A DNA stretch of 64,000 nt. Source: a virus (lineage: Duplodnaviria > Heunggongvirae > Uroviricota > Caudoviricetes). Made by a program: the position numbers and the translations under genes. This document shows positions 1-54,723 of the stretch, piece after piece. The DNA lies in IMG/VR virus record IMGVR_UViG_3300045988_007243. One strand, written 5' to 3'. The first letter of the stretch is position 1, and each line of letters begins with the position of its first letter. The notes beneath the pieces are model-generated. The model made no database searches. It was not told where the DNA came from and saw only the letters and a list, made by a program, of their open reading frames with translations.

Positions 1-2938
<2,938 letters not shown>

Positions 2939-2939
<1 letters not shown>

Positions 2940-3178
2940 TACATTTTTCCTGCTCTTCTAAGTTCGTTGTAAGCAATTTCCTCTTTATACGACCTCTGAA
3001 TCTCAAGAAATTGTCTCAATGATAATAAATCAGAGAATGTCATAGCAAAGAGTTGGTCAAGTGTTTCTTTACACCCTTCCATACCATAAATAGCAAGCAC
3101 AAATTTCATCTCGTCTGCTTCTTCATAGGTTGCCTCTACAGCAGCATCAGTTAGTGGTGTCTGTAGAGTGTTACCCAT
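2939..3178 (-). CDS. tail assembly chaperone-like protein (second of pair)
   Basis: 79 aa acidic ORF between chaperone ORF and tape measure; conserved position. Confidence 0.4.
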
Positions 3179-3180
3179 GT

Positions 3181-3579
3181 TTACTGAGAAGTTAGGCTTT
3201 TGAAAATGCTTGCTTCGAAAAAACTTCCGAAGTTTGCCTCCAGCGCAAATGCTAAGTAATCAATAAACTCACCGTAGTTTGCTTGGAAGTACGTATCAAT
3301 ATTAAGTGGGAAGTCGTCAACAGTTGCCCCTTGAAATAATAAGGTAGCCATCTCTTCAAGGTTAATTTCTTCAATTCTGTCAAAACAAGCTTCAACAAGT
3401 TCTTTAAATGGAACCATTGGAGCTTCTTTCTTACCCTTGTCAGTCAGACTTGATAGCATCTGTGCAAAAGTTGGAACAACAATTTTACCCAACTTCATAG
3501 ACATCTTAATACCATCTCTTGCCCCAAGCAGAATGATATTCACTTTCTTACCGTTAATTACTCTAGATTCTGTTTTCAT
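3181..3579 (-). CDS. tail assembly chaperone-like protein
   Basis: 132 aa ORF between tube and tape measure genes; positional inference. Confidence 0.45.
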   Translation of the reverse strand: MKTESRVINGKKVNIILLGARDGIKMSMKLGKIVVPTFAQMLSSLTDKGKKEAPMVPFKELVEACFDRIEEINLEEMATLLFQGATVDDFPLNIDTYFQANYGEFIDYLAFALEANFGSFFEASIFKSLTSQ

Positions 3580-3603
3580 TGTGATTCCTTAATACTTTTA
3601 AAA

Positions 3604-3645
3604 GAAACAAAAAAGGGGAAGACCTTTTAAAGTCTCCCCCTTATA
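3604..3645 (-). terminator. intrinsic terminator after tail tube gene
   Basis: Minus-strand RNA forms GGGGGAGAC/GGTCTTCCCC hairpin followed by TTTTTTGTTTCTTTT. Confidence 0.55.
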
Positions 3646-3652
3646 GGATTTA

Positions 3653-4099
3653 TTAAACACTTGACGCTGGAATTGTAGAAGTGTAGTCTAACTTCTCACA
3701 ACCAAAAATCCAAGTTTTAGAGTTCTGGTCACGACCAAGTTCAATCTGCGGTAATTCCTGCAACCAAGCATTAATACCAGTTGCCAGAACAGAGCCTGAT
3801 GGGTCGTAGATTACGAAGTTAGAAGAGATATCTTCTTCAAGTTCCATATTGTCTTGTTTAGCTTGAATTGCAGAAAGCATCTGGTTAGAGAGAGAAGTCT
3901 GCATTAACTCAATCTCAATAGTACCTGTCTTGTCTGCATTTCTTGTCAGAGCAACTTGACCACCTGCACCAACAACTGGTGTCACAAGCGGTGATGTTCT
4001 CTGTAGACGCAAGAATGAATCTGGGGCAAAGCCTTCAATGGCAATACCATTCCAGCTACATACAACGTCTTTAGGGGAATATTGCTGATACATAGCCAT
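3653..4099 (-). CDS. tail tube protein
   Basis: 148 aa ORF directly downstream of sheath-sized gene and followed by a strong terminator; positional/size inference. Confidence 0.5.
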   Translation of the reverse strand: MAMYQQYSPKDVVCSWNGIAIEGFAPDSFLRLQRTSPLVTPVVGAGGQVALTRNADKTGTIEIELMQTSLSNQMLSAIQAKQDNMELEEDISSNFVIYDPSGSVLATGINAWLQELPQIELGRDQNSKTWIFGCEKLDYTSTIPASSV

Positions 4100-14638: not shown

Positions 14639-14714
14639 TTGGAGAATCCGAAGGGACTCGAACCCTTATAAACCTGTTTTGCAGACAGGCACATAGCCAT
14701 TTCTGTCACGGATT
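14639..14714 (-). tRNA. tRNA-Cys (GCA)
   Basis: Hand-folded cloverleaf: CCA encoded, 7-bp acceptor, T-loop ACTCGAA(rc), anticodon loop gives GCA. Confidence 0.7.
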
Positions 14715-14718
14715 CAAA

Positions 14719-14811
14719 TTGGAGGAAGATACCAGACTTGAACTGGTACACCGATTTCTCAGCTACTGGCAGTTTAGCAAACTGCTCCCTTACCTTTTAG
14801 GGTTAATCTTC
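14719..14811 (-). tRNA. tRNA-Ser (GCU), long variable arm
   Basis: Perfect acceptor pairing (ggaagat/atcttcc), canonical T-arm, 21-nt variable arm, anticodon loop gives GCU. Confidence 0.7.
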
Positions 14812-14813
14812 CA

Positions 14814-15548
14814 TTATTTCTGTAATGCGTTCTTCATTTCTGGTGTTGCAATAGCATCAATTACACCAGTTTTACAAGCATCATCAAACCAGTCTGGTAA
14901 GATACCTGCTAAGAACCCATTGATATTCGTTTTAAGGTACTCTGCAATAAGGGCAGCTTCTTCTTCAATCATCTGCACAACTTCATCTGCATAAGCTGTA
15001 ATCTTCGAGATACCTTCATTAATCTTACTAACAGCTTGGTTAGCTAAATCAGAAATAGTATCAAGACCTTTGTCAATAGCGTCTTGTAAATCACTTAATA
15101 CATCATTAACACCGTCTAGTGCACTGTTAATCGTATCAATAGCTTTTTGACCATACTCTGTAGCAACACCCATAATACCACTAAATGGTGTACAGCCAAC
15201 TTGTTCACCTGCTGCACCCATAACATTAGAATAACCTTTTGCTACCTGCATACGTGATGAAAACTCATCAATGGACTTTTGACCGTAATCTGTCAGTGTT
15301 TTGGTAGTTGATGTAGTGCTTGTCAGACTCGTGGTAAAGCTGTTAAGCAGAACTGTTGTAAGTCCAGCAGCAACAAGCTTATCTTTTACTGTAGGGTCTG
15401 ATACAGAACTAATAGAGCTTACAAGTGATGTAGAGGCAGCTACGGTTCCACCGAGAACTGCTGCACCAGTAATAAGGGGGTTAGAAAACCCTTTACCAGT
15501 TTTTAAGAGATTAAAAATCTCCTTACCTTGTTCTGTCATCTCTTTCAT
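14814..15548 (-). CDS. hypothetical protein embedded in tRNA array
   Basis: ORF-track start at 15611 overlaps a tRNA; start moved to internal ATG (MKEMTEQ...) with AAAGG RBS. Confidence 0.4.
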   Translation of the reverse strand: MKEMTEQGKEIFNLLKTGKGFSNPLITGAAVLGGTVAASTSLVSSISSVSDPTVKDKLVAAGLTTVLLNSFTTSLTSTTSTTKTLTDYGQKSIDEFSSRMQVAKGYSNVMGAAGEQVGCTPFSGIMGVATEYGQKAIDTINSALDGVNDVLSDLQDAIDKGLDTISDLANQAVSKINEGISKITAYADEVVQMIEEEAALIAEYLKTNINGFLAGILPDWFDDACKTGVIDAIATPEMKNALQK

Positions 15549-15566
15549 TAAGCACCTTTGAAATTG

Positions 15567-15641
15567 GTAGTCCAGTGGGATTTGAACCCTCTTCTCATGT
15601 TTTTCAGACACGCGCTTTAACCATATAAGCTACTTGGACTA
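15567..15641 (-). tRNA. tRNA-Phe (GAA), tentative
   Basis: Acceptor tagtcca/tggacta pairs perfectly, T-loop ATTTGAA(rc), anticodon loop gives GAA; T-stem and D-arm imperfect. Confidence 0.45.
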
Positions 15642-15646
15642 TAAAT

Positions 15647-15722
15647 TGGGGTGACCTACGGGATTTGAACCCGTATAGACCATGTTCACAGCATGGGTCA
15701 TTACCATTTATGATAAGGCCAC
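15647..15722 (-). tRNA. tRNA-His (GUG)
   Basis: Perfect T-stem and anticodon stem, loop gives GUG, discriminator C73 as expected for His. Confidence 0.65.
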
Positions 15723-15753
15723 ATTTAAGGACTCTCGTAAGAATCCTTAGAAG

Positions 15754-15829
15754 TGGCAGCGGCATAAGGATTTGAACCTTAATAAGACAGCTTCAGAGAC
15801 TGCTGCATTGCCAGTTATGCTATACCGCT
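15754..15829 (-). tRNA. tRNA-Gln (CUG)
   Basis: CCA encoded, canonical T-arm, anticodon stem with two G-U pairs, loop gives CUG. Confidence 0.55.
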
Positions 15830-15834
15830 AAATT

Positions 15835-15913
15835 TGGTACTCCATATCGGATTCGAACCGATACATAACACAGATTTTAAGTCTGGCCTCTCTGCCAATT
15901 GGAGTAATGGAGC
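15835..15913 (-). tRNA. tRNA with Leu anticodon UAA, short variable arm
   Basis: CCA encoded, A73, canonical T-arm, anticodon loop CUUAAAA; only 6-7 nt between T and anticodon arms. Confidence 0.5.
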
Positions 15914-15915
15914 AT

Positions 15916-15991
15916 TGGCGGGGGATGTTGGAATTGAACCAACTTCTTCGATTTCAAAGACCGAGGTTTTAACCTTGTAAACTAATCCCCT
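15916..15991 (-). tRNA. tRNA-Gln (UUG)
   Basis: CCA encoded, perfect T-stem and D-stem, anticodon loop gives UUG; position 1-72 unpaired. Confidence 0.55.
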
Positions 15992-15999
15992 TTAAATCT

Positions 16000-16557
16000 T
16001 TACTTTCTCAGTGGATGAATAAAGAATGCCAACATAACTCTTTCCCTTGAGAATGCTCTTTCTTCTGGGACAACACTTTTTAGTTTCCATCCAATATAAA
16101 TTCTCCAGTAAAATTGTTTACCAAAGATTTTAATTGATGGGATAAAAGCGAATAACCCCCAAGCATTACTGTTCCACATTAGGAGATAACCAGTCTGATT
16201 ATCTTCAGGGTCAGAACTTACGTTGATATTACCTTTCCACTTAGTAACATCTTTTACATCTCTTCCTAATACATGGTAAGAGAAGTTATAAGCTTTGTTT
16301 CTCCAGAGCCATCCGACTCTCTGCATATAGACACCAAGCTTACCAATCTTTCTAATCTTAGCCCATCGTTTGATATGACCTGCATCACCATCAATTGGGT
16401 TGTCATAAGTCTCCATCCATCTGAACCCGAAAGGCAAGTGTCCTTTCTTCTCACTGTAGAATGGAACTACAAAAGGTGCTAAGATAACTGCTAAGATTGC
16501 TGCAAATGGCTCTAACAAAGCTAAGAAAATCCATGAAGCATACTTTAAGTATCTCAT
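16000..16557 (-). CDS. membrane protein (hypothetical)
   Basis: 185 aa, hydrophobic N-terminal segment; lies between tRNA sub-clusters. Confidence 0.4.
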   Translation of the reverse strand: MRYLKYASWIFLALLEPFAAILAVILAPFVVPFYSEKKGHLPFGFRWMETYDNPIDGDAGHIKRWAKIRKIGKLGVYMQRVGWLWRNKAYNFSYHVLGRDVKDVTKWKGNINVSSDPEDNQTGYLLMWNSNAWGLFAFIPSIKIFGKQFYWRIYIGWKLKSVVPEERAFSRERVMLAFFIHPLRK

Positions 16558-16796
16558 TGTCTAATCCTCGTAAGGAGGTAAATGTTATTATTCGTTTCTA
16601 AACCTTCTGGTAAAACTGTCTCAAAAATAACACTCTTCAGATGTCTACCACCAAAACAATCACGTATAAATCTTTCTACTCTAGCGGGGTCACATAAGTA
16701 TCCCACTTTTAAGAAAATGTGGTGTTCAACACCAATGACCCTGACAAACTCAATACTCTCACAGTTTTCATGTTCAACTACTGTTAATGTTTGCAT
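16554..16796 (-). CDS. hypothetical protein
   Basis: 80 aa ORF between tRNA sub-clusters. Confidence 0.35.
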   Translation of the reverse strand: MQTLTVVEHENCESIEFVRVIGVEHHIFLKVGYLCDPARVERFIRDCFGGRHLKSVIFETVLPEGLETNNNIYLLTRIRQ

Positions 16797-16814
16797 AGTA
16801 TCACCTTTTTATCT

Positions 16815-16890
16815 GGCGCAGGATAAGGGATTCGAACCCCTATTAACAGCTTCGTAGACTGTTGCTCTTTCCATTTGAACTAATCCTGCA
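16815..16890 (-). tRNA. tRNA-Arg (ACG)
   Basis: CCA encoded, perfect acceptor pairing gcaggat/atcctgc, anticodon loop gives ACG. Confidence 0.65.
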
Positions 16891-16895
16891 AAATT

Positions 16896-16973
16896 GGTGT
16901 TCCAAGACGGATTCGAACCGTCACTAATACAAGGTTTGAGCTTGCATCCTCTGCCAATTGGGATACTGGAACA
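16896..16973 (-). tRNA. tRNA with Leu anticodon CAA, short variable arm
   Basis: CCA encoded, A73, perfect T-arm, anticodon loop CUCAAAC; scaffold paralogous to 15835-15913 and 17476-17552. Confidence 0.5.
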
Positions 16974-16974
16974 T

Positions 16975-17049
16975 GGTACTCACTAAAGGACTTGAACCTT
17001 TTTCTTCATCTTGTAAGGGTGATGTTTTACCATATAAACTAAGCGAGTA
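16975..17049 (-). tRNA. tRNA-Val (UAC)
   Basis: CCA encoded, perfect T-stem and D-stem, anticodon loop gives UAC (one stem mismatch). Confidence 0.55.
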
Positions 17050-17054
17050 TGAAA

Positions 17055-17141
17055 GAGGTCTGAAGTTGTGCCGCTAACTCAACTCCGTGGAATTTGTTAC
17101 GGTCTTCAGTTGACTCAAAGCGGTCTTTCACTTGACCTCTG
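17055..17141 (-). other. tRNA-sized structured element without canonical T-loop
   Basis: 87-nt interval in a tRNA-sized gap with perfectly paired 7-nt termini (agaggtc/gacctct) and internal ctgaag/cttcag repeat, but no GTTCRANY T-loop. Confidence 0.3.
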
Positions 17142-17145
17142 AATT

Positions 17146-17222
17146 GGTGCTGCTCACAGGACTTGAACCCGCATCTCCATCCTTACAAGGGATGTGTAAT
17201 AGCCAATTATACGAAAGCAGCA
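17146..17222 (-). tRNA. tRNA-Thr (UGU)
   Basis: CCA encoded, perfect anticodon stem catcc/ggatg, loop gives UGU. Confidence 0.6.
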
Positions 17223-17229
17223 TTAATTT

Positions 17230-17304
17230 GGAGCATCCAGAGGGAATCGAACCCTCAACCTCAGTTTGGAAGACTGTAATTTTCCCGTTTAAACTATGGA
17301 TGCA
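17230..17304 (-). tRNA. tRNA-Gly (UCC)
   Basis: Perfect acceptor gcatcca/tggatgc, perfect T-stem, U73, anticodon loop gives UCC. Confidence 0.65.
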
Positions 17305-17310
17305 CTAATT

Positions 17311-17386
17311 GGTGGAGAAGCAGGGAATTGAACCCTGTACTTAAGTTTGCAAAACTTATGTTTTAACCATGTAAACTACATCCCCA
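17311..17386 (-). tRNA. tRNA-Ala (UGC)
   Basis: Perfect T-, anticodon- and D-stems; anticodon UGC; G3-U70 wobble and A73 (Ala identity elements) present. Confidence 0.7.
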
Positions 17387-17392
17387 ATGTTT

Positions 17393-17468
17393 GGTACAGG
17401 TGGAGGGAATTGAACCCATCATCTTACTGATTAAGAGTCAGCCGCATAACCATTTTGCTACACCTGCA
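17393..17468 (-). tRNA. tRNA-Lys (CUU)
   Basis: CCA encoded, anticodon hairpin actga/tcagc with loop giving CUU; scaffold paralogous to 19090-19165. Confidence 0.55.
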
Positions 17469-17475
17469 TTAATTT

Positions 17476-17552
17476 GGTACACCTAGAGAGATTCGAACTC
17501 ACACTGAGCAGATTCTAAGTCTGCTGCCTCTACCAGTTGGGCTATAGGTGCA
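17476..17552 (-). tRNA. tRNA with Leu anticodon UAG, short variable arm
   Basis: CCA encoded, A73, perfect anticodon stem gcaga/tctgc, loop gives UAG; 5-nt variable region. Confidence 0.5.
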
Positions 17553-18005
17553 TTAAATCAAATGTCTTGAGAATTGACTGTGGCAATTTGGACACAAGAA
17601 CCGAAGATTCTCTTTTCTATCATCTAACCAGTTCTCGTTAATGTGGTCAACATCAAGAGTTAGAGGGTTATCCAACCAATACGGTAACTGACCACATTTA
17701 GAGCATTTGTATTCGACACCAGAGGCTATTAAAGCTCTTCTTAGTTGTGAAGACCTAGCTCTTTCACCAGATTCACGTAGAATTAGTATTTCTTCAGGCT
17801 TTCTTTTTGGTACAGTTTTAATCTTACCAGCCTTTTGTCCGAGGAAATGAGAAGTGTCTATTTCAAACTTCTCTATAACACGCTTTAGATGTGACTGAGA
17901 ACCACCTGCTGGTTTTCTCCCAAGCTTAATAAGTACTTCTCTGAATGATACTGAATCCTTTACTAAAGGCTCAAGAATATCTTTAGTCAAACTGCTACGT
18001 GCCAT
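17553..18005 (-). CDS. HNH homing endonuclease
   Basis: 150 aa; C-terminal HNH motif (LDVDHINENWLDDRKENLRFLCPNCH); free-standing inside tRNA array. Confidence 0.75.
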   Translation of the reverse strand: MARSSLTKDILEPLVKDSVSFREVLIKLGRKPAGGSQSHLKRVIEKFEIDTSHFLGQKAGKIKTVPKRKPEEILILRESGERARSSQLRRALIASGVEYKCSKCGQLPYWLDNPLTLDVDHINENWLDDRKENLRFLCPNCHSQFSRHLI

Positions 18006-18097
18006 GTGTCAATCTCCCATTAAACCTTTTTAGAGAACTTCTAAGAACCTAAGCAACAAGGTTCCACAACAAGCTGTAATAACCTTAGAAGCCCTCT

Positions 18098-18122
18098 AAA
18101 AAGACCTAAAAAGGTCTTTGCA
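18098..18122 (-). terminator. possible intrinsic terminator/hairpin
   Basis: AGACC-N5-GGTCT hairpin followed by a short U-tract on the minus strand. Confidence 0.3.
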
Positions 18123-18274
18123 TAGTCTTGTTTAATCTGGTGACTAGAACCTTTGGAGAGCTTGATATTATCTCTTCTCCGTGACACCTACTAGGTGCTT
18201 TATCAGTGTGTACGACAACACGAGGGATAAACCGAAAATGCGAGCAAGCATGGACGGTGTAAAATCTTATTAGG

Positions 18275-18362
18275 CGGTAAGTAAAGGAGTCGAACCCTCA
18301 CCGTATCTCTACAGTGGCAACAGTTTTCAAGACTGTTTGGCTGCCATTAGCCGCTACCTACC
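18275..18362 (-). tRNA. tRNA-Ser (UGA), long variable arm
   Basis: Perfect anticodon stem acagt/actgt, loop gives UGA, 20-nt variable arm; CCA not encoded. Confidence 0.6.
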
Positions 18363-18375
18363 CCTAATAAGACTT

Positions 18376-18458
18376 TGGCATGGGACGGAGGAGTTGAACC
18401 CCTTTGAAACGGTTTTGGAGGCCGTTGCTCATGCCTTAGAGTCTTAACATCGTCCCAT
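18376..18458 (-). tRNA. tRNA, identity unresolved (possibly Trp CCA)
   Basis: CCA encoded, perfect acceptor atgggac/gtcccat, canonical T-loop; internal fold ambiguous, about 7 nt longer than class I. Confidence 0.4.
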
Positions 18459-18601
18459 ACTATAATTCGAAGCTCACCGTATTATCTCAACACTGTAAAG
18501 CCCCTTCTCAGATTATTTACATGTTCTGGAAAACATGAGATACAGACCACCTCCCTACAGGAAGACCCGCTTAGGTCGTCTAAGTAATCTGCTAACTAAA
18601 T

Positions 18602-18683
18602 TGGTCGAGGCGGCAGGACTCGAACCCGCATACTCCACTTACTCGGTTAACGGCGGTTTAGAAGACCGCTGAGATACGCCCCG
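18602..18683 (-). tRNA. atypical tRNA-like gene (anticodon hairpin reads UCU, Arg)
   Basis: CCA encoded, acceptor and T-arm canonical, perfect 5-bp hairpin with loop UCU, but no room for a normal D-arm. Confidence 0.35.
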
Positions 18684-18931
18684 TAATTATCTTTAAAGAC
18701 TCTCTTAGAAAGCCCTTAAAGATGCCCACCTTATTAATCATACCGTGGGCGAGTACGCCAAATTCTTTGATGAGGGATTGGAAGACCTCACTGGTGTTTA
18801 GCCTATCAAGCTACTGCCAGAAAAACATTGTCGTTTGCATTTATTTTAAATTTGCAAAATAGACGCTACGCAACGAAAACTAAGGTTAGTATAAAGTAGT
18901 CACATCTCAATGTCAACAACTTTATTGAAAT

Positions 18932-19007
18932 TGGTACTGGTAGGTGGAATCGAACCACCGATGTTCCCTTATCAGGGGAGTGTTATAACCTTCTTAACTA
19001 TACCAGC
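18932..19007 (-). tRNA. tRNA-Ile (GAU)
   Basis: Perfect T-stem ggtgg/ccacc, perfect D-stem, anticodon loop gives GAU. Confidence 0.6.
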
Positions 19008-19008
19008 T

Positions 19009-19085
19009 TGGAGGTTCAGATGGGAATCGAACCCACATTCATAGGGCTTATGAGACCCTTGCATTACCTTATCTGCGACTGAACC
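19009..19085 (-). tRNA. tRNA-Met (CAU) (or lysidine Ile)
   Basis: Perfect acceptor ggttcag/ctgaacc, anticodon stem with GGG/CCC, loop gives CAU. Confidence 0.6.
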
Positions 19086-19089
19086 ATAT

Positions 19090-19165
19090 TGGTAGAAGTG
19101 GAGGGATTCGAACCCATCGCCTGTCAGATTAAAAGTCTGCCGCATCACCATTCTGCTACACTTCC
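19090..19165 (-). tRNA. tRNA-Lys (UUU)
   Basis: CCA encoded, anticodon loop TTAAAAG(rc) gives UUU. Confidence 0.55.
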
Positions 19166-19170
19166 ATTAA

Positions 19171-19312
19171 ATTATCTTTGTAGATAAGCTACCCAGACTT
19201 GCTTAAGGTCTGTAGCGATGTGCCTTTTTGGGTTTAAATCTAGAATTTACCCTTTCACCCTTTGTGGTCGCATACTCACAGGTAAGCTTAATAACTTATC
19301 TACAAAGATAAT
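19171..19312. repeat. 18-bp perfect inverted repeat pair flanking a 106-bp spacer
   Basis: attatctttgtagataag at 19171-19188 is the exact reverse complement of cttatctacaaagataat at 19295-19312. Confidence 0.6.
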
Positions 19313-19365
19313 TACCAGACCGTTGTTTATCATCTTAAGTGCTACCATTACACCAACTCGACATC

Positions 19366-19390
19366 TGCCGAGTGAAGGAATCGAACCTTC
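19366..19390 (-). pseudogene. tRNA 3' fragment (acceptor + T-arm only)
   Basis: gccgagt + gaagg-AATCGAA-ccttc matches a tRNA 3' half but no matching 5' half follows. Confidence 0.35.
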
Positions 19391-19424
19391 GCCTTTTCTT
19401 TACCGAGAAATAGATTGTTTAAGT

Positions 19425-19452
19425 TTTGCTGTAAACGGTCTTCTGTAAATTT
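19425..19452. repeat. 28-bp repeat tttgctgtaaacggtcttctgtaaattt, copy 1
   Basis: Identical 28-mer at 19993-20020; diverged copies at 19512-19536 and 20161-20187. Confidence 0.6.
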
Positions 19453-19619
19453 GTTGAGCCAGACCAAGTTTTAAATTTTTCAAAATTAAATTGGCTTGAA
19501 ATTTTAAGTAACTTGCTGAATTTGGTCTTCTGCTCCTTTAAAGAATACTCGTAAGAACCCTTTAAGGGAGGGGCTAAATAGCCCTCTCAAAACATCATTT
19601 TGAAATACTTATTATAAGT

Positions 19620-19696
19620 TGGCGGCTACGATGAGACTTGAACTCACATCATCTCCCGTGACAGGGGAGTATTTTCTCCAGTTAAACTACATAGCC
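19620..19696 (-). tRNA. tRNA-Asp (GUC)
   Basis: CCA encoded, perfect anticodon stem ctccc/gggag, loop gives GUC. Confidence 0.65.
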
Positions 19697-19701
19697 TTTA
19701 T

Positions 19702-19789
19702 TGGTGTGCCGTGTAGGAGTCGAACCTACCGAGTCTCAATGACAAGGGATTTACAGTCCCCACCGCTACCATCTACGGGATAACGACAC
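19702..19789 (-). tRNA. tRNA-Tyr (GUA), long variable arm
   Basis: Perfect T-stem, anticodon loop gives GUA, about 15-nt variable arm. Confidence 0.6.
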
Positions 19790-19801
19790 ATTTTAATTTA
19801 T

Positions 19802-19857
19802 ATTCAGGATAAGGACTTGCACCTTACAAATCGGTGAGCAATCGCTTCTCTCCTAAA
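19802..19857 (-). pseudogene. truncated tRNA-like element (56 nt)
   Basis: Acceptor-like ends pair, perfect T-stem taagg/cctta around a mutated T-loop ACTTGCA; too short for a tRNA. Confidence 0.3.
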
Positions 19858-19859
19858 TT

Positions 19860-19936
19860 TGGCGGTTAGTCAGGGATTCGAACCCTGTGCCATTCGCTTA
19901 ACAGGCGACCGCACATACCTTATGTGCTTCCTAACC
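19860..19936 (-). tRNA. tRNA-Asn (GUU)
   Basis: Perfect T-stem caggg/ccctg, D-stem gcac/gtgc, anticodon loop gives GUU. Confidence 0.55.
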
Positions 19937-19992
19937 ATGTTTAGTATTACCAGACCGTATCTTTCAATTTTTTCCGCTAAAAATTTCATTAA

Positions 19993-20020
19993 ATTTGCTG
20001 TAAACGGTCTTCTGTAAATT
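19993..20020. repeat. 28-bp repeat tttgctgtaaacggtcttctgtaaattt, copy 2
   Basis: Identical to 19425-19452; abuts the 3' end of the tRNA at 20020-20096. Confidence 0.6.
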
Positions 20021-20096
20021 TGGAGGCGGGTGAAGGAGTCGAACCTGCCGATACCATGCTAATGAGACATGTGAGACGCCCTTTCTCTATACCCGC
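20020..20096 (-). tRNA. tRNA-Met/Ile2 (CAU), second CAU species
   Basis: CCA encoded, anticodon stem catgc/acatg, loop gives CAU; position 1-72 unpaired. Confidence 0.5.
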
Positions 20097-20188
20097 AATT
20101 CTTAATGACCAGACCAAATCTCTTCTTTGTCCGATTTACCTTCAGATGAATAAGATTAAGTTTGCTGTAATTGGTCTTCTGTCAAAAC

Positions 20189-20266
20189 TGGCGTTCCAGA
20201 AGGGATTTGAACCCTCAAATATCCACTTTGAAAGAGTGGTGACTATACCATTTTGTCTACTGGAAC
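20189..20266 (-). tRNA. tRNA-Glu (UUC)
   Basis: Perfect acceptor gttccag/ctggaac, perfect anticodon stem ccact/agtgg, loop gives UUC. Confidence 0.65.
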
Positions 20267-20273
20267 ATTAATT

Positions 20274-20350
20274 TGGTCTCTGTTGGAGGACTTGAACCTC
20301 CGGCCTTACCGCCCCAAACGGAACGCTCTACCAAGCTGAGCTAAACAGAG
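20274..20350 (-). tRNA. tRNA-Pro (UGG)
   Basis: Perfect acceptor ctctgtt/aacagag, perfect T- and D-stems, anticodon loop gives UGG. Confidence 0.6.
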
Positions 20351-51271: not shown

Positions 51272-51829
51272 TTATTTTTTCTTACAATTGTCAAAATGAT
51301 ATCGAGTCATGTTACCAGCACCACCAGTCATACCACAATGAGGGCAAGTTTTCTTTTTCTTTGGCTTTTTTCCGGCTTCTGACATCTTCTTCCTTGTTTC
51401 TATAGACCTTTTACAACCTTTTGATTTTGTATTGCCTATTTGAGATTCTCCTAATCGTCTTCGATGTTCTTCAGTGAAAACCCTACCTTTATTCACAATA
51501 GATAAAGCTTTCGAGTTCAAAGCTCTTACCTTTTCATAGTCTCTGGATGATATTTTCCTATCTAGGCCATCATGAGCTAACCTGTTCCATGCAAACCATA
51601 ACTTATGATTGTTTGGATACATCTTAACCAGTAATTTATGAGCTATATAATGCTCTCTAGGTGTAAGCAAAGCAATATTATCTCCACTAATTTTATCTCC
51701 ACCTAGACATACTGGTATGATATGGTGTCTTTCATAACCCTTACCTTGACATTTGTAGTATGTAAGAGGCACACCCCTTTCAGAATGTGCCTTCTTAATA
51801 ATTGCATTATATATTAGTTCGTAATTCAT
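51272..51829 (-). mobile_element. free-standing HNH homing endonuclease gene downstream of nrdD
   Basis: HNH motif (ERHHIIPVCLGGDKISGDNIALLTPREHYIAH) plus Cys-rich C-terminus; start set at internal ATG because ORF-track start overlaps nrdD. Confidence 0.6.
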
Positions 51830-51836
51830 TTGTATG

Positions 51837-52784
51837 CTACATAGAAACCCTATCCTTAATTTCTGCCATCTTAGCGTCATTCATTCGAGACTGACCTTTA
51901 ATTTTTGTGAATGACAAGTACCCGCACACCCTGTTAATCACAGAGATATCATGTGAATGGCAAACCTCACATTCTTCAACATCAGCCTTTGGTCTGTTAC
52001 CACAATGTTCACAGATTGCTAAGTCAAAGTTAAGCCCTTGATAAAAACCTTTCAACATCCCTCTTGTAATACAACTTTTAAGTGCTGGTAAGTTTTCTGG
52101 GTTAGCTACCCTTACATACTGGATTCTGCCACCTCTACAGATATGGAAGAATGGCTCTTCTAATTCCTGCTTCTCAAATGGTGAGATGTTTGCTGCAACA
52201 TTCATATGGAAACTGTTTGTAAAGTATTCCTTGTCAGAAACGCCTTTAATAACACCAAACATATCTCTGAACTGTTTTAGCTGAGTTCCACACAATGACT
52301 CTGCTGGAGTGCCATATACTGCATACAGGAAGCCATCTTCATTCTTAAACTCTTCAGTTTTCATGTTAATGTATGCCAGAACATCGTATGCAAAACTGGA
52401 ACTTCCAACTTCATGAAGTCGTTTACCTTCAGCAAGAACAGATAACTCATCAAGAGCAGTAACCCCAAAAGAAGCTGTGAAGGACTTCACAATATCCCAA
52501 CCAACCTTGTCAGTAGGCTTCTTAGTCCCTTTATACAGACCACCTTGTGTGAATGCAAGAGGGTTAGAACTTGCTGGCATATTGGCAATCATTTCGTAAC
52601 GTTTCTTATGGAAGCTGCGAATCATTTCTAGGTACTTATCAAGCTCTTTCCAGAAATCTAAACCATTCTCTTTAGAATACTGGTAAATCATTGGTAAGTT
52701 CAAAGATACAGCACCAATGTTAGCACGACCTACATAAAACTCTTCACCATATTCGTTATGGTATGGTGATAAAAATGCTCTACA
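51837..52784 (-). CDS. nrdD: anaerobic ribonucleoside-triphosphate reductase, exon 2
   Basis: Frame stays open upstream of ORF-track start (TTG at 52703) and encodes CRAFLSPYHNEYGEEFYVGRANIGAVSLNLPMIY, continuing from exon 1 ...VISPMG; glycyl-radical motif RVCGYL near C-terminus. Confidence 0.7.
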   Translation of the reverse strand, partial: CRAFLSPYHNEYGEEFYVGRANIGAVSLNLPMIYQYSKENGLDFWKELDKYLEMIRSFHKKRYEMIANMPASSNPLAFTQGGLYKGTKKPTDKVGWDIVKSFTASFGVTALDELSVLAEGKRLHEVGSSSFAYDVLAYINMKTEEFKNEDGFLYAVYGTPAESLCGTQLKQFRDMFGVIKGVSDKEYFTNSFHMNVAANISPFEKQELEEPFFHICRGGRIQYVRVANPENLPALKSCITRGMLKGFYQGLNFDLAICEHCGNRPKADVEECEVCHSHDISVINRVCGYLSFTKIKGQSRMNDAKMAEIKDRVSM

Positions 52785-53526
52785 CTTGTTGTTCAGGTAA
52801 GTTCGCTAAGCTTACCCCGCTTTATTCAAGCTGCTTACTGTCGCCAGTAAGTCCAGACTATATCTTCTACTTATTTCTAAGTAGCGTACCATTTCGAGTC
52901 GCTTGACCCTACACCGCTACATTCATCACGGTTAGTCGTTCGGCATTTAGATGTATTCAAACTCATATTCGAAGTTATTATGCTCTTTTACACCCTTCAA
53001 TATTGAAGAGATGGTCTTGCGATTGTGTCCAAGTATATTGGATAACTCTCGTATTGACTTAGTAACAATAACTTCCTTTGTCACTTTGTGTGTGGCTTTC
53101 ACGGCATATGAACGCTTGTGGAACTTGTAGCACCCGTTCTCATAACCTTCTTTAGCATTCTCAGAATGAGTACCCCATTCTAAGTTGGATGCGTGGTTAT
53201 TTAGTTTGTTATCGTCCTTATGTTTTACAATTGGAAGATTATTTGGGTTAGGTACATATTTCTCAGCAACTAACCTGTGGACATACATGTCACGATTCTT
53301 CTTACCGTAAAACCTCACTTTCATATACCCAGTGTTGGATTTCCACTGCGTAAGCTCTACACCATTTTCCCTAAAGACTTTTCCATCTTCAGTGACGTGA
53401 TAGTTTGGCATGTAAGACTCCTATGTTGTATAGTTTCTTACATCGTACATCATTTAGCACAGGATTGTCTACATCTGTAGAGTTTCCCTGTTTAGGCACG
53501 TTTTAGATGAGCTATAGAGCCTGTTA
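52785..53526 (-). mobile_element. probable group I intron in nrdD carrying an HNH homing endonuclease ORF
   Basis: 742-nt insert between exon 1 (ends ...GGU) and exon 2 (starts UGU...); in-frame stop right after exon 1; insert ends in G; contains HNH ORF. Confidence 0.6.
52947..53411 (-). CDS. intron-encoded HNH homing endonuclease
   Basis: 154 aa; HNH motif (VHRLVAEKYVPNPNNLPIVKHKDDNKLNNHASNLEWGTHSEN) with C-terminal NUMOD-like region. Confidence 0.7.
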   Translation of the reverse strand: MPNYHVTEDGKVFRENGVELTQWKSNTGYMKVRFYGKKNRDMYVHRLVAEKYVPNPNNLPIVKHKDDNKLNNHASNLEWGTHSENAKEGYENGCYKFHKRSYAVKATHKVTKEVIVTKSIRELSNILGHNRKTISSILKGVKEHNNFEYEFEYI

Positions 53527-54723
53527 ACCCATCGGCGAAATAACCTTGCCAGAACGCTCAAAAGCCTCTGCTACAGCACCATGACCAGATACACTTAAGA
53601 AATCTGGATACATAGCTTTAGAGCAACACTCAATAGCTTTACTGTACAGGTGACCTTGACAGATATTTTCATCATGTCTCTTCTGGTCATAAATATAAAC
53701 CAGTTTAGGGAATACAACAGGCTTCTTACTCTTACCTTGTCCATTCATGCGAACATCAAGAATGGTGTTTGCAATCATGTATTGCAGTCGGTTGTCTTCA
53801 TTAGACATATCTGAGTCGAGCAACCCAAATGTTAAAGTTGTGAATGCGAAATCACCACGGCTGCAAGGTACAGTGTTCAGTTTCATTTCAAGTGACTGAA
53901 AACCTTGAGTTAATTCAATCTGTAGCTGCTCCATGACATAATTATGGTAATGTTCTTTAGGAATACCATAAGATGCTGCTTTCTCAGCATGATAGCGTAG
54001 AGACTTCTTAGCATACGGTACAAGCACCTTATCAATCTCTGCTAAAGTAAATCCACCAAATTGCTGTGCAGTTGCTGAAAGAACTACATCACCAATAACC
54101 TGTAAGGCTGACAGCACAGACTTCGGTTCACAGTATTCGATGCCAGACATCTCAAAGCCACCTTTCAGTACTTTACCAATGTCAAACAAGCAACAGTTAA
54201 TGCCGCCAAAAATCAGGTCTCTTAAATCGTGGATATAGATAAACCCTTTTTCAATGGCTTCAAGTTCCTCTGGTGTTAAATGGTACTGCTTAAAGATTTC
54301 TTTAGTCAGGTAACCACGAATAATTGAACCTTTTGTAGAAATTAAACTGCTGTCAAAGTTAGCGTTTTCACGGTCACCTAAGAAGAGCGTGTCTCTAGTC
54401 TTTTGGTAAAGCTCATCCCAATTTTGAGCAACCTCTTTCCGGTAATTTCTGTATGTTGAGTAAGACTCATAAATCTCGTGATTGACTTCTGCCAAAGCAC
54501 CCTCAACAATGCTGTGAATATCATTGACTGAGATGAGTAAATTATTCTGCTTAGTGGACTTTACCAGAATCCTCATAAATGCTGACTCAAGAGCTTGGGT
54601 AACATCTGGTGGGAGTTCTTTATATCCAACCCTGTTAGCTGACTTAGTTACTGCTGCTAAAACTTTTTTGATATCAGGTTCTTCAAGTGAGCCATTCTTT
54701 TTAATAATCTGTACTTTGTTCAT
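53527..54723 (-). CDS. nrdD: anaerobic ribonucleoside-triphosphate reductase, exon 1
   Basis: 398 aa N-terminal part of class III RNR, ending ...YPDFLSVSGHGAVAEAFERSGKVISPMG. Confidence 0.7.

Follow-up and report, generated by a model that had tools for sequence, protein, structure and literature searches.

The ribonucleotide reductase gene nrdD is found in two pieces in the 64,000-nucleotide stretch of Caudoviricetes DNA analysed here (IMG/VR virus record IMGVR_UViG_3300045988_007243, the whole of which is referred to as the window), with an HNH endonuclease gene lying in the insert between them. This raises the question of whether the insert is spliced from the RNA, leaving a single gene, or whether an endonuclease gene has split nrdD into two. 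Judged from its sequence, the insert is very probably a group I intron, IA2-like and of the T4 td/sunY type, which carries an HNH homing endonuclease gene. A first-pass annotation of the window had read it as a group I intron and had named a split without splicing as the alternative.

Exons and reading frame of nrdD

The gene and its insert are laid out as follows.

54723..53527, minus strand: nrdD exon 1, codons 1–399, ending ...SPMG, last base U.
53526..52785, minus strand: predicted group I intron, 742 nt, IA2-like, T4 td/sunY type; it ends at 52785 with the terminal (omega) G.
52784..51837, minus strand: nrdD exon 2, codons 400–714 and stop; its first codon, UGU, is Cys400.

The first-pass annotation had described nrdD as two open reading frames (ORFs), and both were confirmed on the minus strand from the ORF list and by direct reading. 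The N-terminal ORF (54723..53524, minus strand, 399 amino acids) ends ...VISPMG and a stop, and the C-terminal ORF is listed as 52703..51837, minus strand. It had also been claimed that the second frame stays open upstream and continues the protein from ...VISPMG. This holds, as the exon-2 frame is open upstream of 52703 as far as 52784, encoding CRAFLSPYHNEYGEEFYVGRANIGAVS, and joining 53527 to 52784 gives a 714-residue NrdD which aligns to solved structures with no gap across ...SPMG/CRAFL... (9d3x, E = 7e-78; T4 NrdD 1h78, E = 2e-75). The nrdD of phage wV8 is uninterrupted, encodes 714 residues and gives a 97.5% identical protein. Its pairwise alignment to the window breaks exactly between 53527 and 52784, which places a 742-nt insert at 52785–53526 with the junctions as originally read.

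The position of the insert, nucleotide 1197 of the coding sequence (CDS), is common to seven further intron-bearing relatives. Ambiguity at the boundary is limited to a one-base slide (T...G versus A...T), settled here in favour of T...G because group I introns end in a terminal G. The exon-terminal U (U53527) stands directly before the insert, whose first three bases, UAA, are an in-frame stop and whose last is G52785, all of which had been noticed on the first reading; multiple stops in the nrdD frame are found within the insert. The predicted ligated-exon junction is ...AUGGGU followed by UGUAGAGC..., in wider context ...CCGATGGGT followed by TGTAGAGCA....

Cys400, the first residue of exon 2, aligns with Cys290 of T4 NrdD in the motif SPMGCRSFL, which we take to be the thiyl-radical residue of the class III enzyme. 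The T4 numbering was checked on a reconstructed 605-residue T4 NrdD, where C79, C290 and G580 were at the expected positions.

In each of the eight intron-bearing alleles examined, exons 1 and 2 are intact and keep the frame, and synonymous changes by far exceed nonsynonymous ones; no internal stop was found in any nrdD allele compared. Over the whole gene, the window differs from wV8 in 142 codons synonymously and in 18 nonsynonymously. The exon-2 frame has no ATG, GTG or TTG between its last stop (52808) and 52703, hence codons 400–426 are untranslatable from unspliced RNA, and no Shine–Dalgarno sequence could be read ahead of the annotated second NrdD start. Across the eight intron-bearing alleles these codons comprise 10 variable codons with synonymous changes only versus 1 with an amino-acid change. 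Codons 400–426, the catalytic cysteine included, thus evolve under purifying selection.

A probable group I ribozyme in the insert

The insert contains a guide sequence close to its 5′ end and two parts of a core, separated by the endonuclease ORF.

53520..53507, minus strand: internal guide, GCUCUAUA followed directly by GCUCAU, one contiguous 14-nt stretch 7–20 nt inside the insert.
53500..53457, minus strand: 5′ core (helix map), the 5′ part of P3–P6.
53500..53495 with 52890..52885, minus strand: P3, CGUGCC with GGUACG, 100% paired across ten introns.
53491..53486 with 53464..53459, minus strand: P4, ACAGGG with UCCUGU, 96.7% paired across ten introns.
53481..53477 with 53472..53468, minus strand: P5, UCUAC with GUAGA, 87.2% paired across ten introns.
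53458..53457 with 52944..52943, minus strand: P6, GC with GC (helix map).
53451..53446 with 52955..52950, minus strand: P6a, GAUGUA with UACAUC, 93.2% paired, compensatory change in 5 of 6 pairs.
52955..52796, minus strand: 3′ core (helix map, Rfam alignment, covariation and minimum free energy (MFE) fold).
52937..52933 with 52860..52856, minus strand: P7, GACUA with UAGUC, invariant in ten introns.
52932..52929 with 52916..52913, minus strand: P7.1, ACCG with CGGU, covaries.
52909..52905 with 52900..52896, minus strand: P7.2, GGGUC with GACUC, covaries.
52884..52878 with 52873..52867, minus strand: P8, CUACUUA-GAAA-UAAGUAG (helix map).
Between P8 and the 3′ strand of P7, minus strand: J8/7, AAGAUA, invariant in ten introns.
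52851..52845 with 52840..52834, minus strand: P9, CUUACUG-GCGA-CAGUAAG, with a GCGA loop.
52816..52811 with 52801..52796, minus strand: P9.2, GGUAAG with CUUACC (helix map).

The intron 3′ end reads ...GAACAACAAG. In P1, the last six bases of exon 1, AUGGGU (53532..53527), pair with the guide GCUCAU (53512..53507), with U53527·G53512 at the splice site; this helix is 93.8% paired in the ten-intron alignment described below. Directly adjacent, in P10, the first eight bases of exon 2, UGUAGAGC (52784..52777), pair with the guide GCUCUAUA (53520..53513) at 8/8 positions. Within the window, on both strands, a perfect 14-nt complement of the ligated junction occurs at 53520..53507 only. Shuffled sequence gave ~0.9 such sites per 128 kb, hence ~3e-4 matches would be expected in the first 40 bases of the intron.

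Likeness to two introns of T4 whose self-splicing is experimentally established was detected with sensitive blastn, the 3′ half of the intron being 71% identical to T4 td and the P6′–P8 core 77.5% identical to T4 sunY. The T4 td and sunY introns as reconstructed measure 1016 and 1033 nt, in agreement with what we take to be their lengths. P7.1 and P7.2 are presumably IA2 features, following the classification of Michel and Westhof.

The first-pass annotation had proposed a covariance-model search as a check, and the outcome was divided. The natural ORF-less allele of phage EC6 (316 nt, 2 bases from the window ribozyme) scored 53.2 bits against RF00028 Intron_gpI, above the gathering score of 50 (E = 7e-13), whereas the window copy, interrupted by the ORF, gave 33.1 bits on the P7–P9 3′ core and 15.6 bits on P3–P6 in a permissive scan. 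The 33.1-bit match has E = 2e-6 on a 1.1-kb stretch and 1e-4 on the whole window. The sub-threshold score of the window copy is attributed to the 465-nt ORF in L6a, which splits the core. An unconstrained MFE fold of the ORF-less allele recovered every helix listed above except the P7 pseudoknot (z = -3.0).

Covariation and variation of the structure

Ten introns were compared: those of the window, EC6, BPSELC-1, Vibrio phage 355E48.1 nrdD, T4 td, T4 sunY and TH58 nrdD, the terL intron of Aeromonas phage 4L372XY, and two of the four tape-measure introns of vB_CoeS_P1. Large ORF loops were excised, 8 nt of exon were kept on each side for the seven introns with independently defined splice sites, and the sequences were aligned by MAFFT before pairs were counted for the proposed structure. 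In this alignment 92.7% of cells pair, versus 34–42% with the 3′ partners slid by 1–3 columns, and both-sided changes occur in 46 of 77 pairs versus 9–18 when slid. None of 500 shuffles attained the observed values of pairing and covariation. All six P3 pairs covary, and compensatory changes are abundant in P6a, P7.1, P8 and P9.2. P10 was 66% paired over all ten introns; it is relied on for the nrdD-site introns only, because the 3′ exons of the others are not independently defined.

Variation within the genus was followed in eight intron copies. When full and ORF-less introns were aligned automatically by MAFFT, the short alleles were put in the wrong place and spurious differences arose; that alignment was discarded for one rebuilt from the 426-nt deletion that distinguishes the two forms. 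In the ribozyme part 12 of 286 sites vary, 2 at the 132 helix positions versus 10 at the 154 unpaired positions (Fisher p = 0.04). Both helix changes keep pairing (G-C to G·U and U-A to U·G), and changes in loops preserve GNRA, e.g. GCGA to GUGA in L9.

The predicted intron-encoded HNH endonuclease

The ORF within the intron, which the first reading had described as an HNH ORF with its own start, was verified as such.

53411..52947, minus strand: HNH homing endonuclease gene, I-HmuI-like, 154 amino acids and stop, in the P6a terminal loop.
53422..53418, minus strand: Shine–Dalgarno AGGAG, 6 nt upstream of the ATG of the ORF.

Residues 43–86 match the Pfam family HNH_3 (PF13392; 41.2 bits versus a cut-off of 24.8), and the protein also matches phrog_59 (E = 1e-42). 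A full-length match to I-HmuI (1u3e) pairs residues 3–152 with 12–169 (E = 4e-9), the HNH stretch ...VHRLVAEKY...HKDDNKLNNHASNLEW... being aligned to ...VHRLVAIHF...HKDGNKDNNLSTNLRW... of I-HmuI. Among six copies of the ORF 13.6% of sites vary, a higher share than in the ribozyme part, with 44 variable codons showing synonymous changes only versus 13 with changed amino acids, and the endonuclease ORF is under purifying selection.

At its 3′ end the ORF is interlocked with the ribozyme: the final codons share bases with the 3′ strand of P6a, and the stop codon falls in the P6 internal loop. At its other end, the start codon falls within the 3′ strand of a local hairpin (AUGUAAGA with UCUUACAU), seen in the MFE fold of the ORF-less allele, and we conjecture that this hairpin may regulate the ORF in the manner described for T4 intron ORFs. 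A promoter scan found 8 promoter-like sites versus 10.9 expected by chance; with the scan at chance level, a weak site upstream of the ORF (53471..53442) was rejected as giving no evidence of a promoter.

Alleles, distribution and possible homing

The 4-kb region around the gene is 94–97% identical to many Felix O1-like phages (Felixounavirus), the closest being Salmonella phage Sl26 (97.4%). Approximately 250 Felix O1-like records in the phage collection fall into three allele states: ~155 are intron-less, 34 carry an ORF-less intron and ~61 the full 742-nt intron. The ORF-less intron measures 316 nt, with one of the 34 at 292 nt. Two features of the window are defined by comparing these alleles.

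53403..52978, minus strand: natural in-frame deletion of 426 nt, leaving a 12-codon mini-ORF (MPN/NFEYEFEYI and stop).
52784..52725, minus strand: intron-linked exon-2 tract, first 60 nt (binned divergence of alleles).

The deletion spares the last nine codons of the endonuclease ORF because the last codons form the P6a 3′ strand. Two records labelled as Campylobacter phages A132 and A126 (MG065664.1 and MG065668.1) were found to contain, at 96–99% identity, an nrdD of Felix O1 type that bears the ORF-less intron, and these assemblies look to be mislabelled or contaminated.

Overall nrdD similarity fails to separate the allele classes, the nrdD of intron-less LF82P2 being as close to that of the window (95.7%) as most intron-bearing alleles are. 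In the first 60 nt of exon 2, intron-bearing and intron-less alleles diverge by 19.9%, versus ~3% in adjoining 60-nt bins, and the intron-bearing alleles differ by 4.0% among themselves. The intron-type tract was found in no intron-less record, where the best single-piece matches were 91–92% identical. Homing in which co-conversion was short and one-sided would leave a tract of this kind; within it, residue 408 changes from Phe/Leu to His. The tract could instead, or also, come from selection, either on P10 pairing or for resistance to cleavage, which counts against reading it as a trace of homing.

More tentatively, and with slightly less than even confidence, we propose that the Gly399–Cys400 junction may be a long-lived homing site of one co-evolving intron/HNH pair shared from Felix O1-like to Vibrio phages, in which case the ~55-nt exon-2 tract would be the recognition or co-conversion footprint of an I-HmuI-like nickase. 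This proposal draws on the nrdD intron of Vibrio phage 355E48.1, in which the endonuclease is 40% identical, P10 covaries with codon choice, and the C-terminus of the ORF overlaps P6a as it does in the window. If true, the ~250 sequenced genomes and their three allele states would offer a natural system for studying asymmetric co-conversion and ORF loss.

The minus-strand gene order is nrdB, glutaredoxin, small membrane protein, nrdD and a free-standing homing endonuclease gene. The latter (51272–51829, minus strand) lies directly 3′ of nrdD, matches phrog_655 (E = 3e-57) and has a NUMOD3 motif. Its listed start at 51880 overlaps the 3′ end of nrdD, the likely start being the ATG at 51829 (MNYELIYN...). 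The intron-less phage radambza has this gene, and wV8 and nataliec lack it, hence the gene moves independently of the intron. Elsewhere in the window, 24 tRNA genes are clustered at 14643–20350 on the minus strand; two are weak (31–32 bits), and one of these two also scores, below threshold, as tRNA-Sec-like.

Alternative explanations

Several observations weigh against a group I intron. An Rfam scan of the window at the gathering threshold returned tRNAs only and missed the intron, the window copy being below threshold at 33.1 bits versus 50. In the P1–P9 folding, which the first-pass annotation had put forward as a check, P1, P3–P9.2 and P10 could be mapped and P2 is absent, while P9.1 is weak (4 bp) and aligns poorly. 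P10 in 35FD has a mismatch with no compensating change. The covariation partly reflects sequences chosen by similarity and a structure derived from the window, which to some degree favours the unslid register. Furthermore, catalysis, splicing in vivo, and the activity of the endonuclease and its cleavage site are inferred from sequence.

That the gene is in pieces, with an endonuclease insertion dividing nrdD into two separately translated polypeptides that reassemble without splicing, is how public records present the locus, giving two NrdD CDSs and an endonuclease gene. Bardina et al. (2016) likewise call nrdD split by a homing endonuclease (PMC4837284), and the nrdA of Aeromonas phage Aeh1, split by mobE, is a precedent (PMC3653736). 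Such a split would not account for the 34 records which keep a 316-nt ribozyme with no endonuclease ORF, nor for the guide, core helices and covariation. It would also cost the protein residues 400–426 with the catalytic cysteine, yet these startless codons are conserved under purifying selection, and the annotated second start has no Shine–Dalgarno sequence ahead of it. On this analysis two separate polypeptides appear extremely improbable, and the alternative left by the first-pass annotation is contradicted. The group I intron it preferred is supported by the P1/P10 guide, the P3–P9.2 core, the td/sunY homology and covariation.

An intron that has decayed or lost its ability to splice efficiently, with nrdD effectively a pseudogene, is very unlikely. 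Loss of nrdD would be tolerable with aerobic nrdAB in the phage: a class I enzyme is probably present, as nrdB adjoins nrdD in close relatives and Felix O1-type phages are reported to have nrdA. One record lists the gene merely as a misc_feature “similar to” nrdD, and the window copy falls under the Rfam gathering score. Against decay, the exons are intact and in frame in 8/8 alleles with synonymous changes well in excess, hardly any helix sites vary and pairing is kept in both that do, and the low score is due to the 465-nt ORF in L6a, the ORF-less allele reaching 53.2 bits. Phage ribonucleotide reductase genes often carry inteins (PMC3653736), hence a protein-level intervening sequence removed after translation was also considered; it is ruled out by the reading frame, since the first triplet of the insert, UAA, closes the nrdD frame, in which the insert contains multiple stops. 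The HNH ORF is equipped with a start codon and a ribosome-binding site of its own, and a Pfam search found no Hint/intein domain.

Proposed mechanism

As a group I intron, the insert would be part of one pre-mRNA transcribed from nrdD. The guide at 53520..53507 would pair with the last six bases of exon 1 (P1, with U·G at the splice site) and then with the first eight bases of exon 2 (P10). The P3–P9 core would bind guanosine, cleave after U53527 and ligate U53527 to U52784 past the terminal G52785. Ligation would restore the 714-residue NrdD, including its presumed thiyl-radical cysteine, and translation of any unspliced RNA would halt at UAA, the first triplet of the intron. In a mixed infection, the I-HmuI-like HNH enzyme would presumably cut or nick intron-less nrdD near the insertion site, and repair could then copy the intron and ~55 nt of the 3′ exon into the recipient, completing homing. 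Homing is supported indirectly by how patchily the intron is distributed, by the exon-2 tract linked to it and by the purifying selection on its ORF.

Annotation and significance

A literature search found no paper describing the Felix O1-like nrdD element as a group I intron. In UAB_Phi87, according to Bardina et al., a homing endonuclease gene splits nrdD (PMC4837284), and a survey of split phage ribonucleotide reductase genes omits the Felix O1-like case (PMC3653736). The paper on SPJ41, which carries the ORF-less allele, mentions “two introns” from a non-coding RNA scan and does not give their locations (PMC9951933). According to its genome paper Felix O1 has no introns (PMC3185647), which may well hold because the annotation of the uninterrupted wV8 nrdD names one Felix O1 NrdD protein, NP_944999.1, as similar. 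The element is an essentially undescribed instance of a well-known mobile element type.

None of the intron-bearing records inspected has a joined nrdD CDS; they give two CDSs, or a misc_feature in one case. Some ~95 public Felix O1-like genomes, RefSeq included, annotate nrdD as a pair of genes or call it a pseudogene, together with spurious hypothetical proteins. Small “hypothetical protein” ORFs are annotated in relatives at positions corresponding to 52763–52906 on the plus strand (antisense) and, on the minus strand, as an ORF of ~37 amino acids over the intron 5′ end; in L001 the two lie at 2061–2204 and 2687–2797. Being antisense to or within the ribozyme, they are almost certainly spurious as genes. 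One join() annotation would mend the nrdD records and the gene counts in phages developed for biocontrol.

The understanding of group I introns is unchanged by the nrdD case. With it, phage nrdD has a second and independent site for introns, located at the catalytic cysteine. The Gly–Cys site fits the rule that the codons targeted by group I introns and their endonucleases are the most conserved ones of active sites. The three coexisting allele states (empty site, full intron and ORF-less intron), together with the sharply bounded exon tract linked to the intron, give an example in nature of the homing cycle.

Comparison with known systems

The nrdA/mobE arrangement of phage Aeh1 resembles the window nrdD in that an HNH endonuclease gene interrupts a ribonucleotide reductase gene, for which two CDSs are annotated. 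In Aeh1, however, there is no ribozyme and the halves are translated separately, whereas the window has a complete ribozyme and a second half which, with the catalytic cysteine, is untranslatable alone.

The td intron of T4 (group IA2, encoding I-TevI) shares with the window intron a P3–P9 core with P7.1 and P7.2, the 3′ half being 71% identical. In both, P6a carries the endonuclease ORF as a loop, with the 3′ end of the ORF extending into the 3′ strand of that helix, an in-frame UAA stands at the start after ...GGGU, and the 3′ end has a terminal hairpin and ...GAACANNAAG/UG. They differ in host gene (thymidylate synthase versus nrdD), in P2 (present in td, none in the window intron), in enzyme (GIY-YIG I-TevI versus HNH) and in phage (Straboviridae versus Felixounavirus).

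T4 sunY (encoding I-TevII) is also found in nrdD, and shares the P1 guide hexamer GCUCAU, the lack of P2, the P7.1 loop UGAUGAAUGUA and 77.5% identity over the P6′–P8 core. Its GIY-YIG ORF is in P9.1, whereas the HNH ORF of the window is in P6a. The sunY intron interrupts T4 codon 180 (phase 1), equivalent to residue 279/280 of the window protein, versus a site between codons 399 and 400 (phase 0) in the window, ~120 codons further downstream and directly before T4-numbered Cys290. Because the positions differ, Gly399–Cys400 is a second, independent intron site in phage nrdD. Escherichia virus TH58 (Mosigvirus) has a 1045-nt nrdD intron at the sunY site (L009, 2488–3532) whose P3–P7.1 region matches the window intron at 87.5% identity, a closer likeness than that of T4 sunY; this suggests that core segments may have been exchanged between introns at different nrdD sites.

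Further introns were noticed in other phages, all of them unannotated. The tape-measure gene of Vibrio phage vB_CoeS_P1 is apparently broken by four consecutive ORF-less group I introns (L012, ~2400–3615), each with the J8/7-P7 motif GAUAUAGUC and three of td/sunY type. In Aeromonas phage PhAER-4 an unnamed gene contains two td/sunY-type introns next to each other, one with an ORF (L011, ~1300–2660), and in Aeromonas phage 4L372XY an ORF-less intron splits the large terminase gene (L010, 2490–2764).

The window enzyme resembles I-HmuI (1u3e), from the DNA polymerase intron of Bacillus phage SPO1, in its HNH motif and C-terminal DNA-binding region, which align, and in being encoded by a phage group I intron. 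Similarity is low, and target gene and host are different.

A parallel at the same site is the nrdD intron of Vibrio phages 355E48.1 and F94, which has the same insertion point (...YMG/CRS...) and P1 guide. In 355E48.1, nrdD is annotated as three pseudogene fragments, the first break (L008, 2391–3208) being an 818-nt intron; the second (3833–3951, ~117 nt) could be a frameshift or sequencing error. The 818-nt intron is longer than that of the window, has longer P7.2 and P8, and comes from an unrelated marine phage. Its 8-bp P10 covaries with the differing exon-2 codons (exon UGCCGAUC with guide GAUUGGCA, 8/8), and its P6a-loop ORF is 40% identical to the window ORF over the full length (E = 2e-36).

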